DNA from: an uncultured Ignavibacteriaceae bacterium
GTDB lineage: Bacteria > Bacteroidota > Ignavibacteria > Ignavibacteriales > Ignavibacteriaceae
DNA length: 64,000 bases
Direction of reading: 5' to 3'
NCBI GenBank assembly: GCA_964531325.1
Contig: CAZHCW010000018.1
Coordinates: 11,785 to 75,784 of the forward strand
Shown: positions 7,197-33,332 of the stretch, in pieces
How positions within the stretch are numbered: the first letter of the stretch is position 1
How the letters are laid out: every line of letters begins with the position of its first letter
Position numbers and translations under genes: made by a program
The notes under the pieces: model-generated
The model's database searches: none
The model's input: the letters and a program-made list of their open reading frames with translations, nothing else
What the model was told of the DNA's origin: nothing

Positions 7197-9239
7197 ATGA
7201 AAAATCTCCTCCTGCTCATCGCTCTTGTTATTATTTTACCATCCAGCCTCTCAGCTCAGGATAATTATATGGTGTTCCTGAAAAACAAAGGCTTCACCGG
7301 TGAATTCTCACACGGAAGTTTCCTGTGGTCATTGGCTGGCTCTACTCTCTCGAGCGAAAGCATCAACAGACGAATAAAACACCTCGGTGAAAAATACTAC
7401 CTTTCGGAGCAGGATATCCCCGTCTCCGCAGAATATATAGCAAAACTTGAATTGACAGGCGCCAAAATTCGCTGGAATCTAAAATGGTTCGATTGTATTT
7501 CTGTTACCGCCGATGCTACAACTCTTGATAAAATAAAAAAACTTGATTTTGTCAGTTATGTACGCCCCGTCATAAAAATTAAAGTCCCACTTGAATTTAG
7601 AAATCCCTTAAATCCCATTGAAGATGATGCCCTGGCTTCCCTCTCCGGAAAGGCTACTACTCCTGACTTTATACCTAATACCTCATACTTTATACCTGAT
7701 AATTATTCAGAGTCAGACCAAAAACTTTACGGCGGGTCTTACACACAGTATAAGATTTCGGATGTACCCGAAGTTAACAGAATGGGTGCTACCGGGAAAG
7801 GTGTGAGGATTGGTGTTCTCGATTCGGGTTTTGACTGGCAAAAACATGAAGCTCTCAAAACGAGAAAGGTTATCGCTGAATACGACTTTGTAAAAAAAGA
7901 TAAAGTAACTGCCAACCAGGAGGGTGACCCTGCCGGCCAACATGGTCATGGTACATTCTGTTTTTCGGTCTGTGGTGGATTCTTCGAAGGAAAACTTGTT
8001 GGTCCTTCTCACGATGCATCCTTTGTTCTGGCAAAAACCGAAACCACTGAATTTGAAAGAATGGTTGAAGAAGATAACTATGCCGCTGCAATTCAATGGA
8101 TGGACAGTATTGGCGTGGATATCACTACCAGTTCACTCGGCTACACTGTTTTTGATGATGCCACCTACAGATATGAAGACCTGACCGGAAATACTGCAAT
8201 CTGTACAAAAGCGATCAATTATGCATTTTCAAAAGGTATTTTAACTTTTACTGCAGCAGGGAATTCTGCAAATGACCCCTGGTTTTATGTTTCAACCCCC
8301 GGCGATGGATATGAAGCTTTGGCAATTGGGGCAGTTACAAAAAATCGTGAAATTGCAGACTTTTCTTCAGGTGGCCCCACTGCCGATGGAAGGATTAAAC
8401 CTGATTTTTCTGCCGCAGGGGTTTCAGTTTTTGGTGCACTTGCATCCTCAAAAAACAAATTTGAAAGATCAAACGGTACTTCAGCCGCAACTCCTATAGC
8501 GGCCGGGATAGGTGGACAACTACTCTCACTCTTTCCACATCTGAAAAACACTCAGGCAAGATTTATCCTGCGCTATACCTCTGATCAAAGAATGATGCCT
8601 GATAACCTTTTTGGATATGGCCTCGTTTCAGCTCTCGAAGCCGTAACCTATCCAAATCTTGAAAAGGAGAGGAACGGGACATGGTCGCTGCACAAACGGT
8701 TTAGAGACAAAGTAAGAGCTAAAAGTGTTTATCTGGTTTACAAAACGGGATATGGCAAAACTGATCGTATCCAGATGAATCAACTTGAGGATCAACACTA
8801 TAAAGTGAATCTTCCAAAAGTGGCAGACAAAGAGGCATTTGAGTTTTGGTTTGATGCGGGTGAATCAACTAATGGTGTAAATTTCCCTTCAACCGGTAGA
8901 AAATATTATACCCTTCCCGACAACGAAAATGTTTATACATCAGTTCCGACAAAAATTAACCTCAATAAATTTGCGAAAGAAAAAGCAGTAAAATTTACAG
9001 GGGTGAATCCAAGAATTTATGTCAAATTTAAAAGCGGTGCAAAATCAACCGTCGTGGTAATCAAAGATATCGCAGGAAATATTGTTTCCTCAATCCCGGT
9101 TGCTGATCTTCACTATGACAACAGAATTATCTGGGATGGTAAAAACTTTTCCGGAAAACGGGTACCTGTTGGAATTTATTCCTCAACAGTAATGATTGAT
9201 GGAAGACCGGGCGGAAAACAGATATTTTTTAGAAGGTGA
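7197..9239 (+). CDS. Secreted S8 (subtilisin-like) serine peptidase with FlgD-Ig-like C-terminal domain
   Basis: Signal peptide. Catalytic triad contexts GVRIGVLDSGFD, HGHGTFCFS and SNGTSAATPIAAG. The C-terminal ~70 aa (VVVIKDIAGNIV...IWDGKNFSGKRVPVGIYSSTV) resemble the C-terminus of the 25361..28606 protein. Confidence 0.9.
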   Translation: MKNLLLLIALVIILPSSLSAQDNYMVFLKNKGFTGEFSHGSFLWSLAGSTLSSESINRRIKHLGEKYYLSEQDIPVSAEYIAKLELTGAKIRWNLKWFDCISVTADATTLDKIKKLDFVSYVRPVIKIKVPLEFRNPLNPIEDDALASLSGKATTPDFIPNTSYFIPDNYSESDQKLYGGSYTQYKISDVPEVNRMGATGKGVRIGVLDSGFDWQKHEALKTRKVIAEYDFVKKDKVTANQEGDPAGQHGHGTFCFSVCGGFFEGKLVGPSHDASFVLAKTETTEFERMVEEDNYAAAIQWMDSIGVDITTSSLGYTVFDDATYRYEDLTGNTAICTKAINYAFSKGILTFTAAGNSANDPWFYVSTPGDGYEALAIGAVTKNREIADFSSGGPTADGRIKPDFSAAGVSVFGALASSKNKFERSNGTSAATPIAAGIGGQLLSLFPHLKNTQARFILRYTSDQRMMPDNLFGYGLVSALEAVTYPNLEKERNGTWSLHKRFRDKVRAKSVYLVYKTGYGKTDRIQMNQLEDQHYKVNLPKVADKEAFEFWFDAGESTNGVNFPSTGRKYYTLPDNENVYTSVPTKINLNKFAKEKAVKFTGVNPRIYVKFKSGAKSTVVVIKDIAGNIVSSIPVADLHYDNRIIWDGKNFSGKRVPVGIYSSTVMIDGRPGGKQIFFRR

Positions 9240-18616: not shown

Positions 18617-20098
18617 TTAAAAATCTACCGGAGTATCATTAATCTCCCGTGCAGCAGTTGGAGCCTCTTTACTCGATTCAGGTCTAAACATCGCCATTAT
18701 TCCATATCTTTGTTCATCAAGGGCATGATCTGAAATTGAAGGGTCGTTCCCCTTTCCTTTTATATCCTCAGGGTCTTTTGTATCGTAGGTAACCGACATC
18801 ATTTCTGCAAGAAGAGGTTCATTTAATCCTTCAAAAATGAAGTATTTGGGTGGTTTTCCCTCCGAAGGAAATAAACTTTTCCATCCCCACCAGCCTGTTT
18901 TGCGGGAATTGTAGGCGGGACTTAAAAACAACCCCTCCACTTCAAAAACATCAGCAAATGTGTTTTCGTGGGCAATTACCGAAAATCTTTCCTTTTTTGC
19001 AAACGCATCAGTACCCGAAACGATAATCGAAGGTTTTCTGCCCCCTAACAATTTTCCTGTAACCGAATCCGGTTTTAACATCTCACTAATTGCCCGGGCA
19101 TGATCAACGGGTGTCCTCTGTTTTTCATAATATGTAAAAACCCTGTAATAGATTCCATTGTGGTCTCTGGCGGTTACACCAAAAGAACATGGAGAACTGA
19201 ATCCCGGATCGATGCTCCCTGTTAATGTCCAATCGGGTGGAATGGTAAAAGGTGGAATCACTTGTTGAAGTCTGTCAAAGTTTTTAAAGAACATCCCGCC
19301 AAAAACCTCCCAATCGCCATAAAGGTAAGCTAATCGTAATTCATTGGGAAGGGATTTTAGGTTCGCCGCATAAGTGCTTTTATCGATACAATATTCTCTT
19401 CTCTCCTCCTCACTCCATTTATTGTAATATGTGTCGGCAGAAATACCATCTTTTTTTAAGTGTTTTAATGACCAGAAAATATTATCCCATAAATATGATT
19501 GAATAAAATGAAATTGTGCGGGGTCTTCGTGTTTTTCAAATTTCCGATCTATAAAAAGTCGTTTAAGATATGAATGAGACACTCCACCCGGATTCATGGT
19601 TAAAATCATCTTGGGTGTGAATCCCGGTTTTACGGATCGATTGGAAGTTTTCAGAAACTGTATCTGATGAGGAGTACAATGTGAAGCTTCATCAATAAAT
19701 ACCAGATCAAACTCAAAACCCTGGAAAGAATAGATATCACTTTCACTGTCTGCGTATCCAAACTGAACTATGGGAGTGCCATCGGGAGCATACAATATTT
19801 TTTCTGATTTATTGTAATGCTCCATAATCTTTGGGTGGTTTTCATACAGAGGAAGTATGTGGTTCTTCAACAACTCTTTTGAATACCGTCTGAATATTAA
19901 AGATTTATAAGCAAACTCCGGCGAGAGTCCCAGAAGCACAGCAATCTCCCTGATGGCATGACTTTTTGCTCCACCTCGTGCTCCTCCATATCCAATCCAT
20001 GAATAACTGCTCCCCGTAATCAATTCTTTCAGCAGAAGTTGTTTTGGAAGCAGACTAAATTTTTCAATTTTAACAGGAGATTTTTTCCTGATAGTCAC
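18617..20098 (-). CDS. terL: Phage terminase large subunit (ATPase plus nuclease), apparently intact
   Basis: 493 aa. Walker A YGGARGGAKSH, Walker B DLVFIDEASH, nuclease-domain motifs SIDPGFSSP and SDHALDEQRYG. Confidence 0.85.
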   Translation of the reverse strand: MTIRKKSPVKIEKFSLLPKQLLLKELITGSSYSWIGYGGARGGAKSHAIREIAVLLGLSPEFAYKSLIFRRYSKELLKNHILPLYENHPKIMEHYNKSEKILYAPDGTPIVQFGYADSESDIYSFQGFEFDLVFIDEASHCTPHQIQFLKTSNRSVKPGFTPKMILTMNPGGVSHSYLKRLFIDRKFEKHEDPAQFHFIQSYLWDNIFWSLKHLKKDGISADTYYNKWSEEERREYCIDKSTYAANLKSLPNELRLAYLYGDWEVFGGMFFKNFDRLQQVIPPFTIPPDWTLTGSIDPGFSSPCSFGVTARDHNGIYYRVFTYYEKQRTPVDHARAISEMLKPDSVTGKLLGGRKPSIIVSGTDAFAKKERFSVIAHENTFADVFEVEGLFLSPAYNSRKTGWWGWKSLFPSEGKPPKYFIFEGLNEPLLAEMMSVTYDTKDPEDIKGKGNDPSISDHALDEQRYGIMAMFRPESSKEAPTAAREINDTPVDF

Positions 20099-24278: not shown

Positions 24279-24310
24279 AAAAAAAACCGCCGGAATAAAG
24301 TCCGGCGGTT
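24279..24310 (-). terminator. Strong intrinsic terminator ending the TonB receptor-to-PorV-like operon
   Basis: AACCGCCGGA-ataaag-TCCGGCGGTT forms a perfect 10-bp stem. The minus strand follows it with T8. Confidence 0.85.
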
Positions 24311-24332
24311 CAGGAATATTAACCAATCAGTA

Positions 24333-25349
24333 TCAGAATCCGATACCAAAAGTGAAACGGTGTGCCTGATCAAGCCTGCCATAGTCTGCCCAGGCATAAT
24401 CGAACCGGATAACATAACCACCCGAGATGGAGGCTTTAACTCCACCACCAAGAACGGCTCCCCCCTCGAGGTCTTCGAGGAAAAGGTTTCTGTATCCACC
24501 TCTCACATAAAATATATCCAGGAGTTGAAACTCACCACCCAGACTTATACTCTCTTTATTGTCATTGGGATGGAAAGCATCCGCTGTAAGAATGAGTTTA
24601 TAATCCTTTGAAAATCTCACAGGATATGACATTCCCACTCTGAATGCTGTTGGGAGACCCCATTCATCCATTCTGAGTTGTGCCGGAAGTTGATCGTTGT
24701 CACCATATTTTTTGGGATCAAAATCAAAATTAACATAAGCATCTCTTCCCTCATACTTTGCCCGGGGACCAAAGTTCATAAGGGCTGCGCCTATTGTTAA
24801 TCCGTCCACTTCAACCTGATATTGAACACCAATATTCAGAGCAAAGCCCGTAAGACTTGAGTGCCAAATTGATTCCTGGAAATAAGTCATCTGCAATCCA
24901 ACAGAAACTCTATCAGTGAGCATCAAACCATAACCGAGACCAAGAGCAAAATTAGTAACACTAAATCTCTCACCCGTTCCGAGGGGTTGTTCAACTGTTC
25001 TTACATCCATTTCTCCGGAGTTGAGGGAGGTCATCTGAATTGCCAGAGTACCAATTCCCTGAAGTGGAACACCCACAACAGCATAATTGTAGTTGATATC
25101 AGCCAGCCACTTGTTATAAGTAAACTGCGCATCTATCTTCTCAAGTCTGCCGAGTGATGCCGGATTATAATAGAGAGAAGTAGCTTCACCATAAAGTGAG
25201 GTACCTGCATTTCCCAATGCTGCCGCTCTTGCACTTGGTTCAATTTTCAGAAATTGTGCAATTGTTGTGCCTGCCTTGCTCTGAGCAAAGAGGACAGAAA
25301 CAGGAGCCAACAGAACAAAAACCATCACTACATATATTGATCTTTTCAT
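24333..25349 (-). CDS. PorV/PorQ-family T9SS-associated outer-membrane beta-barrel
   Basis: 338 aa with a signal peptide. The N-terminal KAGTTIAQFLKIEPSARAAALGNAGTSLYGEATSLYYNPASLG matches the signature I associate with PorV/PorQ-family proteins. It ends with an aromatic residue (GIGF). Confidence 0.7.
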   Translation of the reverse strand: MKRSIYVVMVFVLLAPVSVLFAQSKAGTTIAQFLKIEPSARAAALGNAGTSLYGEATSLYYNPASLGRLEKIDAQFTYNKWLADINYNYAVVGVPLQGIGTLAIQMTSLNSGEMDVRTVEQPLGTGERFSVTNFALGLGYGLMLTDRVSVGLQMTYFQESIWHSSLTGFALNIGVQYQVEVDGLTIGAALMNFGPRAKYEGRDAYVNFDFDPKKYGDNDQLPAQLRMDEWGLPTAFRVGMSYPVRFSKDYKLILTADAFHPNDNKESISLGGEFQLLDIFYVRGGYRNLFLEDLEGGAVLGGGVKASISGGYVIRFDYAWADYGRLDQAHRFTFGIGF

Positions 25350-25360
25350 TTTTTTGTCTC

Positions 25361-28300
25361 CTACTTCACAATTGCGAATTTACCGATATGAACACCCGCC
25401 GCACCGGCATCTACATGGAAGATATACAAACCGGGAGCAGCCTCAAGATTATCCTTGGTTCTGAGGTCCCACGGGACGAATCCTTCAAGAATGTTTCCGT
25501 CATGTTGAAGGGTTTGCACAAGTTCTCCCGTTATCGTATATATTCTAATCGAACAATTTGGAGGAAGATTCCTGAATTCCAGGCGTCTTTCACCTCTTCC
25601 CTGAACACCAAATCTCTGTGGTTCAAAAGAAGCTGCTCCAACATAAGGATTAGGCACAACATACGGTTTTTTGTTGAATTCACTGTTTGCCAGATTTTGA
25701 TCATATTTTTGTGCAATCGATCTGAAAGTGAATTCATCATCCCGGTTGAATGGTTTGTGGAGGGAAAACCTGTACTCATCTCCAAGAGTTGGAGGTACAA
25801 GTGGTCCCCGTTGCCATTGCCCGGTTGTATCAAGTTTGATATTCCAGGTTGGAATTGCAACATTTGGAGCTTTTGTCTGATATGTTTCGATCTCAATATA
25901 ATCATCGGGTTCGTCAAGTGTTTTTGAGTTGTTTTTATCGTAGAACTTAAAATCATACTCAAGAACAGTGCCGTCAGCTTTAATTCCGGTAACTTTAAAC
26001 ATGGCTTGTTTGGCCTGGAATCCGGGGAATGCTTTTGATGTGTCAAGTACCTGATTACTAAAAACAATTCTTAAGTCTTCAGGATAACCCGGTCTTTTAA
26101 GGTTAACAGGTCGAACCGCACTGTATCTAATGCCCAAAACTGAATTGGTTGAGCTGCCAGAAATAAATCCGGTTTTTGTTGAATCAACTCTAAATGTATC
26201 GATCGTGGAGACAACGGGAAGAAGTCCCAAAGCAGTTGGTCCCGAACCCAATCCTTTAAAATCAGACCCGAGTCTAAAAAGGGTGTCTCCCGTAGTTTCA
26301 TCAACCAATCTGTAAAGTTCAGCTTTTACACTGTCATCCTGACTTATAAACGAAACCTTAAAGAGATGGTTTTCAGGCACTTCTGCCGGATTAACCACCA
26401 ACACTTTCACCTCGCCAAAGCCATTTCCTTTGCTGTGAACAAGGTTCTCGGTTGTTGCAGGTACATATCCCATTGCATTGGGATTGGGAATTACTTCTAC
26501 AACATTTTTCGGAAGAACAGTTCCACCACGAAGAGTTTGTGTGACTGAATATGCATTCTCCGAAGGGAAAAGTTCAAGACTGTCTGATCCTTTATCGTAA
26601 GCAACTACTGCATAATAATATTTTTGACCATTCACCACTGTGGTATCTTTGTAGGTATGTTTTATTCCTGTGTCATCACCAAGATAGTACGCAACACCTT
26701 TAACCGTGGTTTTTGAATATCCCAGAACACCATTTTTTAGATCAAACTGTGCAAGAGCCTTACCAAATGGCATCGGTTCAGTACCCGTTCCACTATATAT
26801 GGTTTTAATGTCATTAAAATTGGGATCGGTGCTTCTGTAAATCTTGTAACCTTCAAAATCGTTTTCGCTGGTTACAGGATCAAAAGCTCTTTCTGAAGCT
26901 TCATCCCATGACAATGTAACGAATCCATCCCCTGCAAACGCAGTGGTGGTTGGTGTTGGAGGTGGAACCGCAAACTGGTAGTTGGCTTTGTAAATTTTTC
27001 CAACTATCTTAACATTGTTTTTAAGCTCACGAAGATCCCTGCCAAACGCAAGAGCAAGGCTGAATCTTTCGGTTTTTCCTGCCGGGAGTTTAAAAGGTCC
27101 TGATGCAAAAAGGAAACCGATATTAAGGTTTGTTCTTGTGATGGCAGCATCAAAAGAAGAGTCAGGACTCGAGAAATTTTTGTATAATCTTTCGGGCCAT
27201 CCTCTTCCATCATCGTAAAACACGATGTTGTCAGTTTGTCCACCACCGGCAGGATCGTTGATTCTGTTAAATTTGAAGCCGGTTAAACCGACCTGATCAG
27301 ATTCATCAACATCCACTTTATCAAATCCGGGTTCACCATTCGTGGGTATCCCATCATTTTCACCGGCATCGTTGGTGCCAAATACACCATCTTCGCCGGT
27401 ATCGTTAAAATCGGCGACCCAATCCATATCCTCATCGCCTGTCCACCAGATACCTCTTTTATAAGCAGGTCTGCTTTCGAGGGGACCATAAGTGGCTTCA
27501 AAATCAGCGATTGCATAATTGGCAGTTGCGTAATTGCGGATGTTATCCTGACCGGTGATCAAGATACCGGGACCACTGTCTCTTTTTTCATCCCTGATGC
27601 CGTCTTTGTCGTTGTCAAGGCCATCATACTGGTTACCCGGGGTTTCAAGATAAGAATATCCGAGGTATCCGGTTGGACCCTTAACACCATTTCCGTAGAA
27701 ATCCCATGTATAAACAAGGTTAATTCCCTCTTCTTTGGTGAAATAAGCGTTATCATCATCAGATTCTGGATAGGGGTCTTTTCCTTTACCGGAACCACCC
27801 ACACCGGAATCCATATAAAGTCCAAAGATTATATTGTCATTATAATCGGTGGTTCCTTCATTTGTAATATCATAATGGAAAAAGAGAACATCAGATGCCT
27901 GGGGATTATTCCACTGGAAACCTCTCTGTTCAATCCTTAGACCAAGCCCTCTGCGGGTACGGTCACGACTGTCGGGATAAAAATCCCATGCATCATAAAA
28001 GTTATCGTCGAGAACAACAAAACTTTCCTGCATTTCGAGTTTAGGAACCTTGCCAAAATAGCCGTTCCATGATCCTGCCCAACCCGGATCGGTAACATCA
28101 TCCATTTTATTTTGCCACTTGTTTGGCCAGGTTCTTGGATCGTTTGATAGAGCCACCGACCTGCCCACATTTATTGTTGGGTCGTCCTGATGATAGCCGG
28201 GCCGGGGTTCATAACGCATCGTTTTACCGGTAAGGGGACTTTGAGTCTGCCTTTCCCTGTAACCCGATTGCATCATATAAGCCACTTTTCCGTTTTCCTG

Positions 28301-28606
28301 CATAATTTTTGCAAGAACAAAAGGAGTGATACCATCTGTATAATTTTCACCCGATCCTTTAGGAATCTCAACCGAATGAAAAACGGTTAAATCAACTTTT
28401 AACGGATCAGGGGGATAATCACCCACCATCCCGTAATTGTAAAAACGGGTACGAATGTTGTTAAAATCGTGCTCACCCATTCTTTCAGCATCTATTCTGC
28501 CTCTTAGTTCGGGGGGCACCTGTGCATACATCAGACCGGGGAAGATGGTGAACAATATCACCAACATCGCGGTTTTAACTCTGATATCAGGTTTTTTAAA
28601 ATTCAT
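25361..28606 (-). CDS. Very large secreted protein with Asp-rich Ca-binding-like repeats and FlgD-Ig-like C-terminal sorting domain
   Basis: The ATG at 28606 follows GGAGG by 7 nt and is preferred over 28630. Signal peptide. DNDKDGIRDEKRD and GEDGVFGTNDAGENDGIPTNGEPG repeats. The C-terminus IRIYTITGELVQTL...PWDLRTKDNLEAAPGLYIFHVDAG...GKFAIVK. Confidence 0.75.
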   Translation of the reverse strand: MNFKKPDIRVKTAMLVILFTIFPGLMYAQVPPELRGRIDAERMGEHDFNNIRTRFYNYGMVGDYPPDPLKVDLTVFHSVEIPKGSGENYTDGITPFVLAKIMQENGKVAYMMQSGYRERQTQSPLTGKTMRYEPRPGYHQDDPTINVGRSVALSNDPRTWPNKWQNKMDDVTDPGWAGSWNGYFGKVPKLEMQESFVVLDDNFYDAWDFYPDSRDRTRRGLGLRIEQRGFQWNNPQASDVLFFHYDITNEGTTDYNDNIIFGLYMDSGVGGSGKGKDPYPESDDDNAYFTKEEGINLVYTWDFYGNGVKGPTGYLGYSYLETPGNQYDGLDNDKDGIRDEKRDSGPGILITGQDNIRNYATANYAIADFEATYGPLESRPAYKRGIWWTGDEDMDWVADFNDTGEDGVFGTNDAGENDGIPTNGEPGFDKVDVDESDQVGLTGFKFNRINDPAGGGQTDNIVFYDDGRGWPERLYKNFSSPDSSFDAAITRTNLNIGFLFASGPFKLPAGKTERFSLALAFGRDLRELKNNVKIVGKIYKANYQFAVPPPTPTTTAFAGDGFVTLSWDEASERAFDPVTSENDFEGYKIYRSTDPNFNDIKTIYSGTGTEPMPFGKALAQFDLKNGVLGYSKTTVKGVAYYLGDDTGIKHTYKDTTVVNGQKYYYAVVAYDKGSDSLELFPSENAYSVTQTLRGGTVLPKNVVEVIPNPNAMGYVPATTENLVHSKGNGFGEVKVLVVNPAEVPENHLFKVSFISQDDSVKAELYRLVDETTGDTLFRLGSDFKGLGSGPTALGLLPVVSTIDTFRVDSTKTGFISGSSTNSVLGIRYSAVRPVNLKRPGYPEDLRIVFSNQVLDTSKAFPGFQAKQAMFKVTGIKADGTVLEYDFKFYDKNNSKTLDEPDDYIEIETYQTKAPNVAIPTWNIKLDTTGQWQRGPLVPPTLGDEYRFSLHKPFNRDDEFTFRSIAQKYDQNLANSEFNKKPYVVPNPYVGAASFEPQRFGVQGRGERRLEFRNLPPNCSIRIYTITGELVQTLQHDGNILEGFVPWDLRTKDNLEAAPGLYIFHVDAGAAGVHIGKFAIVK

Positions 28607-28632
28607 TTTAAGACCTCCACATTTGTGCATGG

Positions 28633-31293
28633 TTATTTACTCCTGAAAGAAATACCAATTTCAATTTTTCTTGGTTCATAATATCTGCCCGGGTTCTGAA
28701 GTGAAGCTCTGTCGGCAAATGAATTAACTGAATAATCGGGACTTCCCGTATTTGCAAATACAAATCCATTAACAAAATTGGTGTTAAGCACATTTGTCGC
28801 TCTGGCAAATATGCTCAAATTGATAAAGGAGAGCTCAAAATATTTTTCAGCTCTTAAATCAAGCAAAACAAATCCGTCTTTTTGTCCCGAATTGGTTTCA
28901 AGATCTGCGTTGAAACCGGTACCAATAGCAGGAGTATAAGGCATTCCGCTGCCAAATCTCAAAATTGCAGCAATCGTAAAATCGGAAGGCTGGATGTATA
29001 TTGCCGTGAAATTAAGTGTATGCCTCTGATCCCAGCCAAAAGGAACATCACGAGGTCTGGGGTCTTTTCCGGCAGCAGCTCTGTTTGCAGTTTCATACGG
29101 ATCACTTGCGTTTCCTCTCGCCCACTGCATAGTGTAATCCACTGAGGCAGTAATTGGACCAAGTTTTCTCATTTCGAATGCAAGTGTAAAGCCATATACT
29201 GATCCAAAATCGATGTTTGTCATTCTTGGATAATCAGCAGCCGCATAAGTTGAAATGAATTCGGCACCGAGAAGGTCTCTTATATCTTTGTAGAATACAG
29301 TAACTTCGCCACCAAATACTTCGTTGAACGCCTGTTTCAATCCACCTTCATATTGAACGGTGAGCTGTGGTTTCAGATCAGGATTTCCCATCGTTCCGTA
29401 TGAAATTCCACCATCTTGAAGGTCTTTCAAAATTGTGTAATTGGAATTGGAATAAAGGTCTGCCAATCCCGGCATCTGATAAAAATGACCGTATGCGAAA
29501 TAAACTGAAGACATCGCAGTAAGCGGGAAACTGAAACCAAGTCGTGGAGCAATTGCAAATTTTGCGGTGGTTGGTTTCAAAACTGACTGAGGAGCTCCTG
29601 AAATTGAATTTGCAGGATTTGCAGGATCACTTGGCACTTCAGCATGGGCATCATAATATTCAAGTCTTATGCCGCCTCGAACAACAAGATCTCCAAGTTC
29701 AAGCCTGTCCTGAAGATAAAATGCGTATTGTTTTGGAAAATATCTGTCAATTCTTGGATCATTTATCAGGGTTGGTTTATCCTTTGCAACAAGAGTGGCA
29801 ACACCGTCAACAATGGTAGTCTGCAAAAATCCGGGTGACCCAAACTGAATGTCTGAAATCTGTCCCTCAAATCCGGCTTCAACCATGTTGGTTCTGTTGA
29901 GCTGCCAGGTAAAATCACCTTTTGCAATTATACTGTTGGTTTTTTGGATGTATCTGCCAAGATCAACACCCTGGACAATTGCGCCAAGTTCGTAGTTGTT
30001 ATCACTTTTGAACTCACCCGCAGAGATATACCGGGGATCAAAAACCGATTCATACATGTAAGATTTATAATCGAAATAGTTCTGACGAACACTCAATTTA
30101 TAAAACATCGACGATGAGAGGGTGTGTGTAAAATCGAGCCCGTGCGAAATTGATGAAGTGTTGTTTGGCTTGTTACCATCGGGATTGAGGCGCAATCCAT
30201 AATTGTAATAGTAACTCTCAATTGAATTCATTATCGCTTGATAACTGATACTGATGTTATTAAGAGAGGTGTTTGTGAGTTTAAATTGTCCGCTCCACTC
30301 CCTTGTTGTATTCATCGGAACAAGTTCGTTGTCACCAGTTGGATTAAATACTTTCCCTTCGAGGTCATTCCTGTCGGTAGGCAAAAATCTTCTTGTTCCA
30401 TAAAGATATCCGTCGCCGGCATATCTTCTTCCTGAAATGAGGAAGGTAGTCTGTGGAAGATAAGTTGGACCTGAAAGGGTTAACTGATAATTCTGTATTC
30501 CGAGAGGTCGAAGTTTGTCAACATTTGGATAACGATCACTATCAGTTGTATAATAACTTCCACCGTAAAATTCACCCGAGTATTCAAACTTGTCACTTCC
30601 CGTTCTGAGAACTGCGTTTACCACTCCCGACATTGCCTGACCATATTTTGCATCAAAAGTACCGGAGATTACCTGAACTTCCTGCAATACCGACTTGTCA
30701 AGCAACAGAGTTGACGAATTGTTAAACGGGTTGTTTATTGAAACACCATCGACCTGATATTGCACTTCACCAAGCCTGCCTCCTCTAAAGTGACCATCAA
30801 CCACACCTGCTTGAAGGTTTACAATCTGACCCAGATCCTGAACCGGTAAGAGGTCGATTTCCTCTTTCGAAACATTTACCACAGAAGAAGTTTGGTTAAA
30901 CTCGACCAATGGTTTATCGGCTGTTACAATAACTGTTTCAGTTATAAAAGAAGTACTCTGTAGAACTACATCTATTTTAGTTGTCTGGTCGGTAGAGATT
31001 GCGATTGATTCAATCTTCTTCGATTGAAAACCTGTATATCTGAACTCGGCAGAATATGTACCGGCTCTCATATTTAAGACCGCATAATATCCGTCATAAT
31101 CGGTTACTGCCCCTTTATTGGTCCCCTCAATAATAACGGTGGCACCTATAAGCGGCTGACCATTCTCATCGGTAACTCTGCCTGCCATCTTTCCGGCTGT
31201 TTGTGACATTACCTCCGATGAGAGCAGAACCATAAAGAAAAATAAAAAGATTATAACCGGAATCTTTTGAAAATTGTAACCGGTTTTTTTCAT
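28633..31293 (-). CDS. TonB-dependent receptor with N-terminal carboxypeptidase-regulatory-like domain
   Basis: 886 aa. GRVTDENGQPLIGATVIIEGTNKGAVTDYDGYY (CarboxypepD_reg), a plug region (DLGQIVNLQAGV), a long beta-barrel, and a C-terminal ...IEIGISFRSK. Confidence 0.88.
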   Translation of the reverse strand: MKKTGYNFQKIPVIIFLFFFMVLLSSEVMSQTAGKMAGRVTDENGQPLIGATVIIEGTNKGAVTDYDGYYAVLNMRAGTYSAEFRYTGFQSKKIESIAISTDQTTKIDVVLQSTSFITETVIVTADKPLVEFNQTSSVVNVSKEEIDLLPVQDLGQIVNLQAGVVDGHFRGGRLGEVQYQVDGVSINNPFNNSSTLLLDKSVLQEVQVISGTFDAKYGQAMSGVVNAVLRTGSDKFEYSGEFYGGSYYTTDSDRYPNVDKLRPLGIQNYQLTLSGPTYLPQTTFLISGRRYAGDGYLYGTRRFLPTDRNDLEGKVFNPTGDNELVPMNTTREWSGQFKLTNTSLNNISISYQAIMNSIESYYYNYGLRLNPDGNKPNNTSSISHGLDFTHTLSSSMFYKLSVRQNYFDYKSYMYESVFDPRYISAGEFKSDNNYELGAIVQGVDLGRYIQKTNSIIAKGDFTWQLNRTNMVEAGFEGQISDIQFGSPGFLQTTIVDGVATLVAKDKPTLINDPRIDRYFPKQYAFYLQDRLELGDLVVRGGIRLEYYDAHAEVPSDPANPANSISGAPQSVLKPTTAKFAIAPRLGFSFPLTAMSSVYFAYGHFYQMPGLADLYSNSNYTILKDLQDGGISYGTMGNPDLKPQLTVQYEGGLKQAFNEVFGGEVTVFYKDIRDLLGAEFISTYAAADYPRMTNIDFGSVYGFTLAFEMRKLGPITASVDYTMQWARGNASDPYETANRAAAGKDPRPRDVPFGWDQRHTLNFTAIYIQPSDFTIAAILRFGSGMPYTPAIGTGFNADLETNSGQKDGFVLLDLRAEKYFELSFINLSIFARATNVLNTNFVNGFVFANTGSPDYSVNSFADRASLQNPGRYYEPRKIEIGISFRSK

Positions 31294-31392
31294 GCTTACT
31301 CCAGTATGTATGTTGTTTGGAGAATATTAATTGTGACGAGTGAAATTTTGCCCGACTGATATAATCCACCGGGAACAGTTTCCATTAAATTA

Positions 31393-31423
31393 ATGACGAG
31401 TGACATTCAATTGTCACCCGTCA
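31393..31423. promoter_or_regulatory. 12-bp-arm inverted repeat between the CBM9-like gene and the TonB-dependent receptor gene
   Basis: TGACGAGTGACA-ttcaat-TGTCACCCGTCA has one mismatch. No U-run follows on the minus strand, so an operator or RNA structure is more likely than a terminator. Confidence 0.3.
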
Positions 31424-31445
31424 TCAACAAATCGTCACAAATAGA

Positions 31446-33332
31446 TTATTTCATCAATATCATTTTGCCTGTGGCTGAAGAAACAGCACCATCAAAGGCA
31501 TTTTTTAATGAAATTTTATAAAGATAAATGCCGGAAGTTAATCCTGAAGCATCAAAATTTACCTCTTGTGCACCGGCAACAGCATATACAACTTTTGTTG
31601 TAACAAGCTGACCCAATGTATTGTAAACTGCAACTTCAACCTGACCTGTTTGCGGAATAGCAAATTTGATCTTTGTTGAAGGATTAAATGGATTTGGGAA
31701 GTTACCATATAACTCAATTGAAGAAGGAAGAGTCGTGAGTTCATCTTCAACGCCTGTAACTCCGTCATTGCTCAAATATACCCATGCAAGTGCAGGACCG
31801 CCGCCATGCTCTCTCATAAACCATGTTCTGGTTCCATAATTAAGAGCAGGATCGGTGAATGAGTCGCCATCATACTGAACTGTCCCAAAGAAAAGATTCC
31901 TGTCACCAAGATCGGCGGGATAGCCGAGGATCGTGGTTAACTGGATTTTACCTTCAATTACATAACCTTCATCAACATCGTTGTTGTTGTTAATTGTTGA
32001 AGCTCCTTTTAAGGTAAAAGCATATGCTGACTGTGATGAATCGAGCAATGTCTGCATATAATCACCGGGTTTTAGTGCTCCGGTTGAATCAAACGAAAGT
32101 CTGAGCATCCTTGCCTCGAGGGCGTTGTCTGATGCACGAGAATCACGATCCATAACGATTATTGCCAGACCGTCAACTGCATCAAACAATGAAGTTCCTT
32201 GTATCAACTGATCGTTAAAATCAGCACCAAAATAAAGGAATCCGTCTCTGTGGAAATATTTAACTTTTACATATCCCGGATCAACAACAGGTGGTCTAAC
32301 GCCGGGTGTTATATCAGGCTGATACTGACCACTTTGGTAAGGTCCAATTCCGGGGTATGCTGCACGGCCAACTGTGTCATCCCAAGCGATAACAAGATCT
32401 TGTGCACCTGACCAAACTTCTTCATCCAATACACCATCTATTACAGGAGCGGGTTTGTTTGCACCGTTGTAAAAAGTGTATTCAACCGGTGCAAGAGGTG
32501 GGTTGGTTGTGTTGACGGTTACATCAGGTCGGGCATAGATTCTTGCTGCGTTTGCTCCATTTGCATTACCCCAAGGGTATTGAAAATATGCTCTTGCAGT
32601 GCTGATCCTCGATGGAGTGGTTCCGTGAACCCAGTCACAATCCCAAATTGAGAAGTTTAATTGCACTACATCACCCGAAGCCTGGGTTATGTTATATCCT
32701 AATTGAGAAACATCAATTCTCATTTCAACTTCCCATGCCTGGTCAGGACTTGAATCATCGCATGACACTCCGCCAACGGTTCTATAACCGGCATCCCAGG
32801 CGGCTCTCTGCTCGGGAGTTCTGGTTGTATCATTAAAATTACCAAATCTTCCGATAAAACGGGGAGGGGTTCCCGGCTGAATATACTGTGGAACATTAAG
32901 GTACCACCAGGTATAGAAGAATTCAACGGCAGGTAATGGTCTGTTTGGACTTGCCTTATCTCTGATGTTCATCAGGATTCCATCCCATCTTGCCCAGTCA
33001 GCTATTCCACCAACTGAAGAATCGGGCATTCTGAACCCAAGATAAAGATAATTGTCTTTTACGAGAAACTTTACTGTTGCTCGAATTGGATCAAAAATCG
33101 CATTCTCGTTAAATTCAGGTCCCCATCCACTTGTTGGGAGAGCACCCGGCTGACCATATATTACTTGAACCGAGTCGGCTAATGCCCAGTCGGCTTCATT
33201 CATATTACCATCAAGGGTAATAGTGCCTAAAGCATTTTTTGCCCATAGTGCATCCTCGCGGACAACATTCTGAGCGAATGATAAGTTAACTGCAAAAAGA
33301 AGAATGAACAAGGTTGATAACACTCGTATCAT
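31446..33332 (-). CDS. Secreted CBM9/DOMON-like carbohydrate-binding protein with T9SS C-terminal sorting domain
   Basis: 628 aa with a signal peptide. Two xDGxxxExxW modules (LDGNMNEADWALADSVQV and IDGVLDEEVWSGAQDL). The C-terminus is LYGNFPNPFNPSTKIKFAIP...GIYLYKISL...GKMILMK. Confidence 0.7.
   Translation of the reverse strand: MIRVLSTLFILLFAVNLSFAQNVVREDALWAKNALGTITLDGNMNEADWALADSVQVIYGQPGALPTSGWGPEFNENAIFDPIRATVKFLVKDNYLYLGFRMPDSSVGGIADWARWDGILMNIRDKASPNRPLPAVEFFYTWWYLNVPQYIQPGTPPRFIGRFGNFNDTTRTPEQRAAWDAGYRTVGGVSCDDSSPDQAWEVEMRIDVSQLGYNITQASGDVVQLNFSIWDCDWVHGTTPSRISTARAYFQYPWGNANGANAARIYARPDVTVNTTNPPLAPVEYTFYNGANKPAPVIDGVLDEEVWSGAQDLVIAWDDTVGRAAYPGIGPYQSGQYQPDITPGVRPPVVDPGYVKVKYFHRDGFLYFGADFNDQLIQGTSLFDAVDGLAIIVMDRDSRASDNALEARMLRLSFDSTGALKPGDYMQTLLDSSQSAYAFTLKGASTINNNNDVDEGYVIEGKIQLTTILGYPADLGDRNLFFGTVQYDGDSFTDPALNYGTRTWFMREHGGGPALAWVYLSNDGVTGVEDELTTLPSSIELYGNFPNPFNPSTKIKFAIPQTGQVEVAVYNTLGQLVTTKVVYAVAGAQEVNFDASGLTSGIYLYKISLKNAFDGAVSSATGKMILMK

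Follow-up and report, generated by a model that had tools for sequence, protein, structure and literature searches.

Why should a TonB-dependent receptor, a giant secreted protein and a PorV-like outer-membrane barrel be encoded side by side in a glycan locus of an uncultured Ignavibacteriaceae bacterium? The question is raised by a minus-strand trio at 24333-31293 of the window (the whole 64,000-nt stretch of DNA analysed; Table 1), in which the receptor gene is followed by that of a ~1,080-residue secreted protein, here called BIG, and then by that of the barrel. The first-pass annotation had read these ORFs as one operon for a dedicated surface complex. The answer we favor, with somewhat more confidence than doubt, is that the trio is a single copy of an outer-membrane nutrient-uptake cassette, unnamed but widespread in the FCB group, in which BIG would be exported by the T9SS, held by the barrel and feed the receptor.

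The ORF list bears out the three genes and their spacing as first described, with 26 nt between receptor and BIG, given the 1,081-aa start, and 11 nt between BIG and the barrel. Both gaps hold a Shine-Dalgarno site, and in the shorter one AGGAG overlaps the stop codon. The longest BIG ORF, 25361-28630(-), encodes 1,089 aa; the second ATG (28606) has a perfect GGAGG 7 nt upstream and is the start in the NCBI gene calls. The closing terminator noted earlier is also present (GAACCGCCGGA-CTTTAT-TCCGGCGGTTT, then TTTTT, read 24311..24284), is a strong one, lies 21 nt past the barrel stop codon and is the top-scoring site in a 14.5-kb scan. Upstream of the receptor, copies of GTCACTCGTCA lie at 31334-31344 (-), 31394-31404 (-) and 31413-31423 (+), of which the second and third are an inverted pair, and a scan of the 64-kb window finds these three matches where 0.55 are expected. 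This region is the probable promoter/operator of the trio; because the exact motif recurs in near-identical relatives alone, its function is something we infer. Gaps, Shine-Dalgarno sites, terminator and motif-rich upstream region together point to a single, probably co-transcribed operon.

Table 1. Features of the trio and its surroundings (window coordinates)
Feature	Coordinates	Strand	Basis or remarks
GH2-like protein, 700 aa	20761-22863	minus	Pfam; downstream of trio
GH144-type (Glycoamylase PF10091) protein, 458 aa	22847-24223	minus	Pfam; downstream of trio
Intrinsic terminator of trio	24284..24311	minus	11-pair stem, 7 G-C, 6-nt loop, T5 tail
PorV/PorQ-family outer-membrane barrel, 338 aa	24333..25349	minus	NF033709 (PorV_fam) 193.2 bits, cut-off 90
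BIG, 1,081 aa (1,089 from 28630)	25361..28606	minus	Sec signal peptide, no lipobox Cys
BIG C-terminal domain (CTD), residues ~989-1089	25364..25666	minus	variant T9SS type-A-like sorting domain
BIG further Ig-like beta domains, residues ~705-985	25676-26518	minus	model secondary structure
BIG FN3-like domain, residues ~556-700	26531..26965	minus	signature DFEGY.IYRS ... G..YYY.V.AYD (family alignments)
BIG N-terminal domain, residues ~38-555	26966..28519	minus	predicted galactose-mutarotase-type beta-supersandwich (AF2)
TonB-dependent receptor, 886 aa	28633..31293	minus	signal peptide, CarboxypepD_reg, Plug and TonB barrel (Pfam)
Receptor upstream region, 152 nt	31294..31445	minus	three copies of motif GTCACTCGTCA
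Secreted protein, 628 aa	31446..33332	minus	Por_Secre_tail E=2.9e-9, ordinary type-A T9SS CTD

The receptor, named 'TonB-dependent receptor' by NCBI, is of the CarboxypepD_reg type, as had been proposed, with the N-terminal extension at residues 37-123, a plug at 134-224 and a 22-strand-type barrel at 346-835. As a SusC/RagA protein it was rejected, with TIGR04056 giving 72.6 bits against a cut-off of 368 over a match limited to residues 35-158. The likeness to SusC/SusD (RagA/RagB) lies in organization: in both, the gene of a presumed extracellular partner comes straight after that of a TonB-dependent transporter bearing a CarboxypepD_reg-type extension, the pair stands in a substrate-specific glycan locus that also encodes secreted enzymes, a regulator and an inner-membrane importer, and several paralogous copies per genome sit beside different enzyme sets. 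Besides its receptor, which fails the SusC/RagA model, the cassette differs in its partner, which is no lipoprotein, lacks a lipobox, SusD homology and any Pfam match, and is all-beta and multidomain, whereas SusD has an alpha-helical TPR-like fold. Anchoring of BIG would be C-terminal, via the T9SS-type domain, rather than by an N-terminal lipid, and a third gene, that of the PorV-family barrel, is obligatory.

The barrel passes the PorV_fam model, matches the solved F. johnsoniae PorV (PDB 6h3i_F; E=1.1e-4) and scores 25.9 bits with Pfam PorV (cut-off 27). The earlier assignment to PorV/PorQ stands at the level of the family and of dedication to one neighbouring cargo, but not at that of either equivalog, since the scores for PorQ (100.8 bits, cut-off 220) and PorV (65.7 bits, cut-off 250) are too low. 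Membership in PorP/SprF (just 15.7 bits) and BamG (24.9 bits, cut-off 250) was likewise rejected. In a phylogenetic tree, orthologs from six other lineages form a group with the barrel (SH-aLRT 100%), while paralogs from its own genome and true PorV fall outside this ortholog group. These comparisons place it in a separate, cassette-specific subfamily of the PorV/PorQ family. A genuine PorU-PorV pair is encoded elsewhere in the same genome, its genes adjacent and in the cargo-then-barrel order of the cassette.

A closer look at the BIG tail does not bear out the FlgD-Ig-like domain first assigned to it: FlgD_ig reaches 13.2 bits (cut-off 27; E=0.088), below threshold, and the tail is instead homologous to type-A CTDs. 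Profile alignment (hhalign) with the ordinary type-A CTDs of the same genome gives 96.8% (E=2.9e-10), supporting the T9SS-type CTD implied earlier for this cargo. Its pattern, VVPNPY-[~20-aa GRGER insert]-..IRIYT..GELV.TL...W.L.T.....A.G.Y...V....G..IGKFAI(I/V)K, includes a cassette-specific insert after PNP that ordinary type-A CTDs lack. There is no Por_Secre_tail match, and because the curated type-A models all miss the domain, its recognition by the T9SS is assumed from profile-profile homology. Within the genome, a cassette-CTD HMM gives the seven cassette proteins 129-161 bits and one orphan 75, and no other CTD exceeds 46; by these scores the domain is a divergent type-A T9SS CTD of a sharply separate subclass. 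The pairing with barrels recurs in Roseithermus sacchariphilus and a Melioribacter roseus MAG, where 21 of 30 PorV-family genes, counted over the two genomes, have right before them a gene whose product ends in a cassette-class CTD (70-142 bits).

Conservation of the triplet as a unit, implied by the first reading, is borne out by relatives, and the sequence-based checks proposed with that reading do not refute it. Among the best 80 of at least 548 related loci, wherever the contig reaches far enough, a receptor lies directly upstream of the BIG homolog (70/70) and a barrel directly downstream (68/68), with a median gap of ~11 nt ahead of the barrel gene; the automatic count gave 68 and 66, and the four misses were accounted for from the table of matches. 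These loci come from Ignavibacteriales, Melioribacteraceae, KSB1, Caldithrix, Zhuqueibacterota, Kryptoniota and Rhodothermales, and the cassette type is found in thousands of sequence clusters. The earlier picture of one trio with one giant cargo was right about the unit but not about its being a one-off, as the cassette occurs about eight times in this genome. Eight of its 12 PorV-family genes directly follow a receptor gene, and in seven of these cases a BIG-type gene intervenes, which makes seven trios and one receptor-barrel pair (C35) that lacks a BIG-type gene and has two lipoproteins with lipoboxes as its neighbours. Another BIG-family member (C17) has neither receptor nor barrel as a neighbour. 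An arrangement found at every related locus that could be tested, and eight times over in one genome, is far beyond chance. For the seven paralogous cassettes, the similarity matrices of the three genes correlate (Mantel rho 0.88 for receptor-barrel, 0.72 for CTD-barrel and 0.61 for receptor-CTD; p 0.001-0.02), which implies that each cassette was duplicated, and has diverged, as a whole.

Since the known role of PorV is that of a shuttle (PMC10202324), a barrel of this family could do the same here and nothing more: it would collect BIG from the SprA translocon and pass it on, and BIG, released or LPS-linked, would bind or process glycan in a free or loosely attached state, with no stable complex and a receptor that is merely co-regulated. 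The genome has PorU for CTD cleavage, and the cassette loci hold many other secreted CTD proteins, both of which suit this account. We nevertheless hold it to be unlikely, if far from negligible, as a general PorV is already present, the one-to-one pairing of CTD class and private barrel together with receptor co-divergence fits lasting cognate partners such as PorQ-PorZ and PorP with its type-B cargo, and the receptor-BIG-barrel order is stricter across phyla than co-regulation usually yields. In PorU-PorV and PorZ-PorQ of Porphyromonas gingivalis, a 14-strand PorV/PorQ barrel keeps a large surface protein by its type-A-like CTD, which stays on the barrel (PMC10202324). The cassette differs in that its barrels fall below both equivalog cut-offs, its pairs number 7-17 per genome rather than one and are joined to TonB-dependent receptor genes in catabolic loci, and its cargo is unrelated to CTD processing. 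In type-B CTD systems such as SprB/SprF of Flavobacterium johnsoniae, a special CTD class is likewise encoded beside, and dependent on, a private PorV-like barrel; type-B cargo genes cluster with cognate PorP/SprF genes, and PorP/SprF-like barrels are thought to anchor the uncleaved cargo at the surface (PMC10202324). SprB/SprF units, however, include no TonB-dependent receptor, and the cassette CTD is a type-A derivative served by a PorV/PorQ-family barrel.

The C35 pair, with receptor and barrel in the absence of BIG, raises another possibility, that the barrel is primarily the receptor's partner rather than BIG's anchor. It would pack against the receptor as FadL-like BamG does against BamA, and offer a platform or lateral channel to the extracellular partner of the cassette, be it a BIG-type protein or lipoproteins. 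Receptor and barrel are invariant (8/8 in this genome), C35 has its two lipoproteins in place of a BIG-type gene, a similar receptor-barrel adjacency occurs at Roseithermus locus L129, and the receptor and barrel matrices are the best correlated. An attachment role for a FadL-type barrel also has a precedent in BamG-BamH of the Bacteroidota BAM complex, where a FadL/PorV-like 14-strand barrel packed against a larger one is the platform for extracellular proteins (PMC12578637). BamG is of another subfamily than the cassette barrel, tethers lipoproteins at the N-terminus and is part of an assembly machine that is essential, whereas the cassette barrel belongs to nutrient loci. We see a small chance for this reading, which leaves unexplained why the private CTD subclass is found only in proteins encoded just before barrels; it and retention of BIG by the barrel are not mutually exclusive and can both hold.

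What BIG itself might do is suggested by its predicted structure. No Pfam or NCBIfam family matches it at E<=0.1, and every named member of its cluster is a 'hypothetical protein', leaving the family uncharacterised. The full-length AF2 model has a mean pLDDT of 81, and the N-terminal part modelled alone reaches pLDDT 85 and pTM 0.85. Its predicted fold is the supersandwich of the carbohydrate-associated GH94, GH116, GH149 and Cgs proteins, and in the model neither an (alpha/alpha)6 nor any other recognisable catalytic domain follows it. The match is partial (TMq ~0.3) and falls short of proof of glycan binding, which it would suggest. The domain carries a helix-containing, Asp-rich insert (residues ~335-450), and the Asp-rich repeats reported earlier are present as DxDxDG-type stretches at residues ~336-351 and 398-446. 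The FN3-like domain has a weak profile match to the Fn3-like protein 3mpc and is also indicated by the secondary structure of the model; the Foldseek list for full-length BIG is mostly FN3 arrays, and PorZ and PorU are among its structural and profile matches. Paralogous cassettes keep the FN3 domain and CTD, with the N-terminal part varied or shortened. As this fold is known mostly from glycoside hydrolases and phosphorylases and the family is uncharacterised, BIG might be an enzyme, such as an unrecognised glycanase or transglycosylase, and the cassette a surface degradation unit with an importer. We consider this improbable, because the supersandwich is the non-catalytic N-terminal domain of those enzymes, and a variable N-terminal part on a constant FN3-CTD portion is what one would expect of binding modules that determine specificity.

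SprA, PorU and PorV are all present in the genome, and SprA is found in 8/8 distant cassette-bearing genomes. In a 301-genome sample of the phylum, SprA occurs in 128/128 cassette-positive genomes and the cassette in 0/64 SprA-negative ones, a co-occurrence that is phylogenetically weak because all SprA-negative genomes belong to one family. SusD (PF07980) has no match in this genome and a match in one of the 21 genomes searched (this one and 20 relatives). The description of a lineage without SusD thus fits the genome and its family, but the cassette also occurs outside SusD-less lineages; many genomes elsewhere in the phylum carry it alongside SusD genes, so it is no simple SusD replacement.

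The locus is a glycan locus, as first stated: besides a GH94 gene and two of the GH144 type, it holds a GH2-like gene, LacI and a sugar ABC importer, and GH144 and/or GH94 homologs flank the cassette of the BIG ortholog group in all phyla sampled. For this group the trio, though a genuine unit, was an incomplete account: almost every related locus whose flank is long enough encodes a homolog of the 628-aa protein immediately ahead of the receptor, and by position its gene is the conserved fourth gene of these loci. The 628-aa protein has no second Pfam domain and no PDB relative by sequence. The homologous cluster of I. album, from the same bacterial order, is the published beta-1,2-glucanase (SGL) gene cluster IALB_1177-1187. 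It likewise carries a pair of GH144 genes together with a GH94 homolog; its ABC transporter comes with a protein that binds sophoro-oligosaccharides, and its TonB-dependent transporter was put forward as the importer, while BIG and the PorV-like barrel go without discussion in that paper (Kobayashi et al. 2022, PMC8861115). An I. album MAG locus (L040) encodes a BIG ortholog of 63% identity. From this context, our copy of the trio probably handles beta-1,2-glucan.

Oar-type receptors also carry a CarboxypepD_reg N-terminal domain, and Myxococcus Oar and PopC are the model for a further idea, TonB-energised export of BIG. That an Oar-like receptor with such a domain moves BIG across the outer membrane without the T9SS, the barrel then holding it, would suit the failure of curated T9SS models on the CTD, but is highly improbable given a CTD clearly homologous to type-A T9SS CTDs, a barrel that is a T9SS-family component, SprA in all cassette-bearing genomes examined and a catabolic locus with a matching periplasm-to-cytoplasm import route (PMC8861115).

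We therefore return to the uptake cassette, a reading that draws on locus anatomy, family memberships, strict gene order, co-divergence, the pairing of CTD class with barrel, SprA co-occurrence and substrate context. Nearby GH144 enzymes, secreted by the T9SS, would release beta-1,2-gluco-oligosaccharides. PorU would leave the BIG CTD uncleaved, and the domain would remain on its private PorV/PorQ-family barrel, like PorZ on PorQ and PorU on PorV, so that BIG would be displayed at the cell surface next to the receptor. There its mutarotase-like supersandwich and FN3/Ig stalk would catch glycan and pass it to the receptor, perhaps as a 'lid' in physical complex with it, as the first-pass annotation had imagined. 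The receptor would bring the oligosaccharides in, those of beta-1,2-glucan for this copy, and the ABC system of the locus would take them up for phosphorolysis by GH94. Our literature search found no published description of a receptor-BIG-barrel module, in agreement with the earlier view. Through capture and hand-over of glycan, BIG would thus fill the role of the SusD/SusE/SusF lipoproteins in Bacteroidia, and the cassette is probably a counterpart, so far undescribed, of the SusC/SusD pair by which Bacteroides captures nutrients.

The minus strand carries three consecutive open reading frames in the same orientation, for a TonB-dependent receptor, a large secreted protein (BIG) and a β-barrel. 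Within the longest reading frame of BIG, the second ATG, at 28606, is the likely start. A correctly spaced GGAGG lies ahead of it, and the NCBI records begin the gene there; the 1,081-aa length and the 26-nt gap reported in the first-pass annotation follow from this start. The 11-nt gap ahead of the barrel gene carries an AGGAG that overlaps the BIG stop codon. A terminator had been proposed to close the trio, and we indeed find, 21 nt past the barrel stop codon, a hairpin of 11 pairs (7 G-C) with a T5 tail, which is the strongest terminator-like site of the region; other minus-strand candidates inside the three genes are weak and about as numerous as chance would give. In the 152-nt spacer 5' of the receptor gene, GTCACTCGTCA occurs three times, twice in direct and once in inverted orientation, against an expectation of 0.55 for the whole window, and this cluster is consistent with a promoter/operator belonging to the trio. 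At the same place elsewhere, exact GTCACTCGTCA is seen in near-identical genomes only (L027 and L033), and comparison of related loci showed no conservation of the motif past these. Sequence features predict that the trio is a co-transcribed operon.

Coordinates of features in the window and elsewhere in its own genome (G000; C-numbers are contigs, C18 being the one that contains the window)
Feature	Location	Strand	Remarks
TonB-dependent receptor gene, 886 aa	28633-31293	-	ORF; CarboxypepD_reg-type N-terminal extension, plug and barrel
BIG gene, 1,089 aa as longest ORF	25361-28630	-	ORF
Barrel gene, 338 aa	24333-25349	-	ORF
Spacer 5' of receptor gene	31294-31445
628-aa protein	31446-33332	-	Ordinary type-A CTD; no other recognisable domain, no PDB relative
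680-aa protein	7197-9239	+
493-aa ORF	18617-20098	-
Variant set (L024)	G000:C35:21114-27561
Orphan BIG-family member	G000:C17:83714-85795
Set with tandem barrels (L025)	G000:C13:24813-28333
~126-aa ORF sites	C18:36-416, C9:30-410, C16:19-399, C48:102-482, C10:144051-144431, C57:57-812, C2:273346-274002

With one genome taken per species, at least 548 relatives of BIG were confirmed. The best 80 of these are spread over Ignavibacteriales, Melioribacteraceae, KSB1, Caldithrix, Zhuqueibacterota, Kryptoniota and Rhodothermales; Roseithermus sacchariphilus, which is in culture, is among them. In every locus among these 80 with enough contig, BIG has the receptor gene immediately before it and the barrel gene immediately after it, all on one strand and with a median gap of ~11 nt ahead of the barrel gene, and the triplet is therefore conserved as a unit across several phyla. 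The automatic count was 68/70 for the receptor and 66/68 for the barrel; the hit table explains the four exceptions, as the spacer of L069 is longer, the longest ORFs of L089 and L067 are over-extended, and BIG is frame-disrupted in L093. Chance co-location of the three genes was considered and rejected. The family is large: searched by profile, 1.84 billion representatives gave 1,546 clusters at E<=1e-30, a number that rises to 5,021 at E<=1e-10, and in a sample of 301 genomes from the GTDB phylum, BIG was matched (E<=1e-20) in 128 genomes, representing 73 of 144 genera.

Profile models place both membrane proteins. The first gene encodes a TonB-dependent receptor (PF07715, 27.9 bits with a cut-off of 23.9; PF00593, 116.5 bits with a cut-off of 27) outside the SusC/RagA family, as TIGR04056 gives 72.6 bits versus the 368 required over the whole barrel, the match being confined to residues 35-158, that is, the N-terminal extension and the start of the plug. 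The barrel had been called PorV-like, and its membership in the PorV/PorQ family is confirmed by NF033709 (193.2 bits versus a cut-off of 90; residues 28-338 on model positions 1-326), which the other seven cassette barrels of the genome also pass at 169 to 224 bits. It is neither PorV itself (NF033710, 65.7 bits over the N-terminal half only, versus >=250) nor PorQ (NF033711, 100.8 bits versus >=220, with 94 to 130 bits for the other cassette barrels) nor PorP/SprF (TIGR03519, 15.7 bits versus >=90.55), and its direct match to the solved Flavobacterium johnsoniae PorV in the PDB reaches only E=1e-4. [quoted passage not shown] In a PorV-family tree the window barrel groups with its cross-phylum orthologs at 100% support, apart from the paralogs of its own genome, which indicates that the paralogous cassettes are old; its deep branches, between cassette barrels on one side and PorV or the orphan barrels on the other, are not resolved. 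A FadL-type channel for hydrophobic substrates was rejected for the barrel, as the context is purely glycan.

BIG itself carries a Sec signal peptide, lacks a lipobox and matched no Pfam or NCBIfam family, and every named member of its cluster is a "hypothetical protein." AlphaFold2, run with a 50-sequence alignment, gives a confident multidomain all-β model (pLDDT 81). Its first domain is a supersandwich with an Asp-rich insert; next come an FN3-like domain bearing the family signature and additional Ig-like domains, and a flexible linker then leads to the C-terminal β-sandwich. The Asp-rich repeats that had been noted, and read as Ca-binding, correspond to this insert, which has at least one DxDxDG loop. 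BIG lies outside SusD/RagB, having no Pfam match, no lipobox and an all-β model versus an α-helical fold. Foldseek with the full-length model returned FN3/Ig arrays only (TM<0.1), PorZ and PorU among them, which we take as hints only; likewise, a weak match to the PorZ C-terminal domain (CTD) in a PDB profile search (E=0.18) was not used as evidence.

The tail of BIG had been read as FlgD-Ig-like, a reading that does not stand, since PF13860 scores 13.2 bits (E=0.088) versus >=27 and the CTD is type-A-like instead; BIG as an FlgD or flagellar protein was rejected. The isolated C-terminal 103 aa show no match to the Por_Secre_tail models PF18962 or TIGR04183 even at E<=10, and ordinary cargo of the same loci matches type-A models at E values of 1e-9 to 1e-12. 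We defined a type-A CTD by homology and fold as a C-terminal β-sandwich of ~80 to 100 aa with PNP, I.IY..G.LV, G.Y and a terminal K-x-hydrophobic. On both counts the BIG CTD is of this type: residues 1014-1089 form a confident AlphaFold2 β-sandwich, and profile-profile alignment (hhalign) with the type-A CTDs of the same genome gives 96.8% probability (E=2.9e-10, 78 columns), bringing PNP, IRIYT..GELV, GLYIF and GKFAIVK into register. It differs by an extra, cassette-specific insert of ~11 columns (GRGER) after PNP. An HMM of the cassette CTD scores 129 to 161 bits on the seven cassette proteins of the genome and 75 on an orphan, versus <=46 bits on each of ~80 other CTD proteins, PorU included, a gap that marks the cassette CTD as a discrete class. 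Two further tails were seen. A 680-aa protein in the window ends in ...GKQIFFRR, which matches neither the ordinary KM(I/V)LLK tails nor that of the cassette proteins; its score on this HMM is 18.5 bits. A near-identical ORF of ~126 aa with the type-A CTD end ...SGVYIYSLRVNDININKKLVILK lies at many contig ends of the genome and is evidently a multi-copy repeat that breaks the assembly.

The order receptor, BIG-type protein, barrel recurs at seven sites of the genome by phmmer (C18, where the window lies, C21, C11, C4, C12, C2 and C7). With lengths of 678 to 1,210 aa, the middle proteins vary in their N-terminal part, but the FN3 signature and the CTD are common to all. Similarity matrices over the seven cassettes are correlated (Mantel rho, 0.88 for receptor-barrel, 0.61 for receptor-CTD and 0.72 for CTD-barrel), implying that the three genes of a cassette were duplicated together and have diverged together. 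Neighbors of the other cassettes encode T9SS cargo containing CBM9, CBM48/CBM20, GHL10 or BNR domains and a DPP-IV peptidase, so that the cassettes serve different nutrient loci. Other arrangements exist in the genome. On C35 a variant lacks the BIG-type gene, and its receptor and PorV-family barrel are flanked by a 518-aa lipoprotein with an LSSC lipobox on the receptor side and a 374-aa NHL-repeat lipoprotein on the barrel side. The orphan, a 693-aa BIG-family member on C17, follows metabolic genes 1.2 kb from the contig end, with no receptor or PorV-family neighbor. On C13, a 531-aa protein whose C terminus matches the end of the PorU model precedes tandem PorV-family barrels (300 and 336 aa), possibly as a further unit of cargo and barrel or as a set of the PorZ/PorQ type.

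PorV-family matches number 18 in Roseithermus and 15 in a Melioribacter roseus MAG. Among 30 such loci fetched from these two, a gene with a cassette-type CTD (70 to 142 bits) lies directly ahead of 21; a receptor directly precedes one more, and PorU precedes the true PorV. The pairing implies that the rule of a cassette CTD encoded just before a private PorV-family barrel holds beyond the ortholog group of the window. At the Roseithermus locus L129, a receptor is directly ahead of the PorV-family gene.

GH144 is a family of endo-β-1,2-glucanases, and GH94 includes 1,2-β-oligoglucan phosphorylase. The trio was described as part of a glycan locus, and this setting is borne out by GH94, a T9SS-secreted GH144-type enzyme, an ABC sugar importer, LacI, a 628-aa type-A CTD protein, a second GH144-type gene and a GH2-like gene. 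GH144 and/or GH94 flank the cassette in related loci of all phyla sampled. The 628-aa protein has a homolog immediately ahead of the receptor in almost every orthologous locus, whatever the phylum, and gene order thus points to it as an uncharacterized fourth member of this β-1,2-glucan unit. A 493-aa ORF that adjoins the locus matches the phage terminase large subunit (Terminase_3, E=7e-8) and could indicate the remains of a prophage or the boundary of a mobile element. The homologous cluster of Ignavibacterium album is a published β-1,2-glucanase gene cluster, and the available sections of that account do not discuss BIG or the barrel (PMC8861115).

With SprA, PorU and PorV all present, BIG is predicted to be exported as T9SS cargo. 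SprA was found in 8/8 distant cassette-bearing genomes examined and, in the phylum sample, in 128/128 cassette-positive genomes, the cassette occurring in 0/64 SprA-negative ones; this co-occurrence is weak evidence because all SprA-negative genomes belong to one family. The first-pass annotation had suggested that the trio could play the SusC/SusD role in a lineage without SusD. The second half of that proposal agrees with the PF07980 model, which has no match in the whole genome and a match in only 1 of 21 genomes (this one and 20 relatives). In the class sample, BIG is found in 53/74 genomes and a SusD match in 14/74. The cassette is not, however, a strict alternative to SusD: many genomes in the rest of the phylum carry both, typical SusD-rich families lack BIG, and strict complementarity was rejected.

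In the best-supported model for the cassette, BIG would be exported by Sec and cross by the T9SS via its variant CTD, which, uncleaved, would be kept on the cognate barrel; the glycan-binding supersandwich/FN3 stalk would then be displayed beside the receptor, which would import oligosaccharides. There are precedents: PorU-PorV and PorZ-PorQ retain CTDs on a barrel, type-B CTD cargo is clustered with cognate PorP/SprF barrels, and cognate PorV-like barrels have been hypothesized to shield CTDs from cleavage (PMC10202324). The cassette shares with the PorQ-PorZ, PorV-PorU and PorP/SprF systems a PorV-like barrel, here putatively cognate, with a CTD protein. BamG, a FadL-type barrel, can serve as a platform on another barrel (PMC12578637), and a similar barrel-on-barrel arrangement is conceivable here.

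Four main alternatives bear on this model. The barrel may be a shuttle only, or it may primarily be the partner of the receptor, as suggested by the C35 variant, in which receptor and barrel are found with lipoproteins. The receptor may have an Oar-like export role. Lastly, BIG may be enzymatic; among the features of GH94/GH116/GH149-type enzymes the supersandwich alone matched (the N-terminal domain was folded separately for the structure search), the rest being FN3/Ig-like β domains, and in the AlphaFold2 model no (α/α)6 catalytic domain follows it.

Returning to BIG as a retained capture protein, we tentatively propose, with a shade more doubt than belief, that the triad is a third, unrecognized design of surface TonB-dependent uptake beside SusD-type and other lipoprotein partners. 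Its capture subunit would arrive by type IX secretion and be held permanently on a private PorV/PorQ-family barrel by an uncleaved type-A CTD subclass; the design would be ancient, multiplied like polysaccharide utilization loci (8 copies here, and up to 17 PorV-family genes in Roseithermus), and the principal design for importing glycans in Ignavibacteria, Rhodothermia, Calditrichota, KSB1 and related FCB lineages. The parts are of known kinds: surface partners are familiar from TonB-dependent uptake, and CTD proteins are held by cognate PorV-like barrels elsewhere. Their combination and the CTD subclass appear undescribed: the openly accessible full-text literature yielded no description of a cassette of TonB receptor, T9SS cargo and PorV-like barrel.

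Glycan foraging is understood on the model of SusC/SusD pairs, which also serve as the marker by which polysaccharide utilization loci are found; Ignavibacteria and many other FCB phyla, which lack these pairs and abound in sludge, sediments and hot springs, are therefore poorly annotated. If the proposal is true, a receptor, a protein with a GRGER/GKFAI(I/V)K tail and a PorV-family barrel would provide a new marker for such loci, and a family of >1,500 clusters at 50% identity, "hypothetical" everywhere, would gain a role. The dozen or more PorV paralogs in such genomes would be explained, a fourth practical CTD class would become available for predicting T9SS cargo, and the T9SS principle that a cognate barrel keeps its cargo would reach from the secretion machinery to nutrient uptake.
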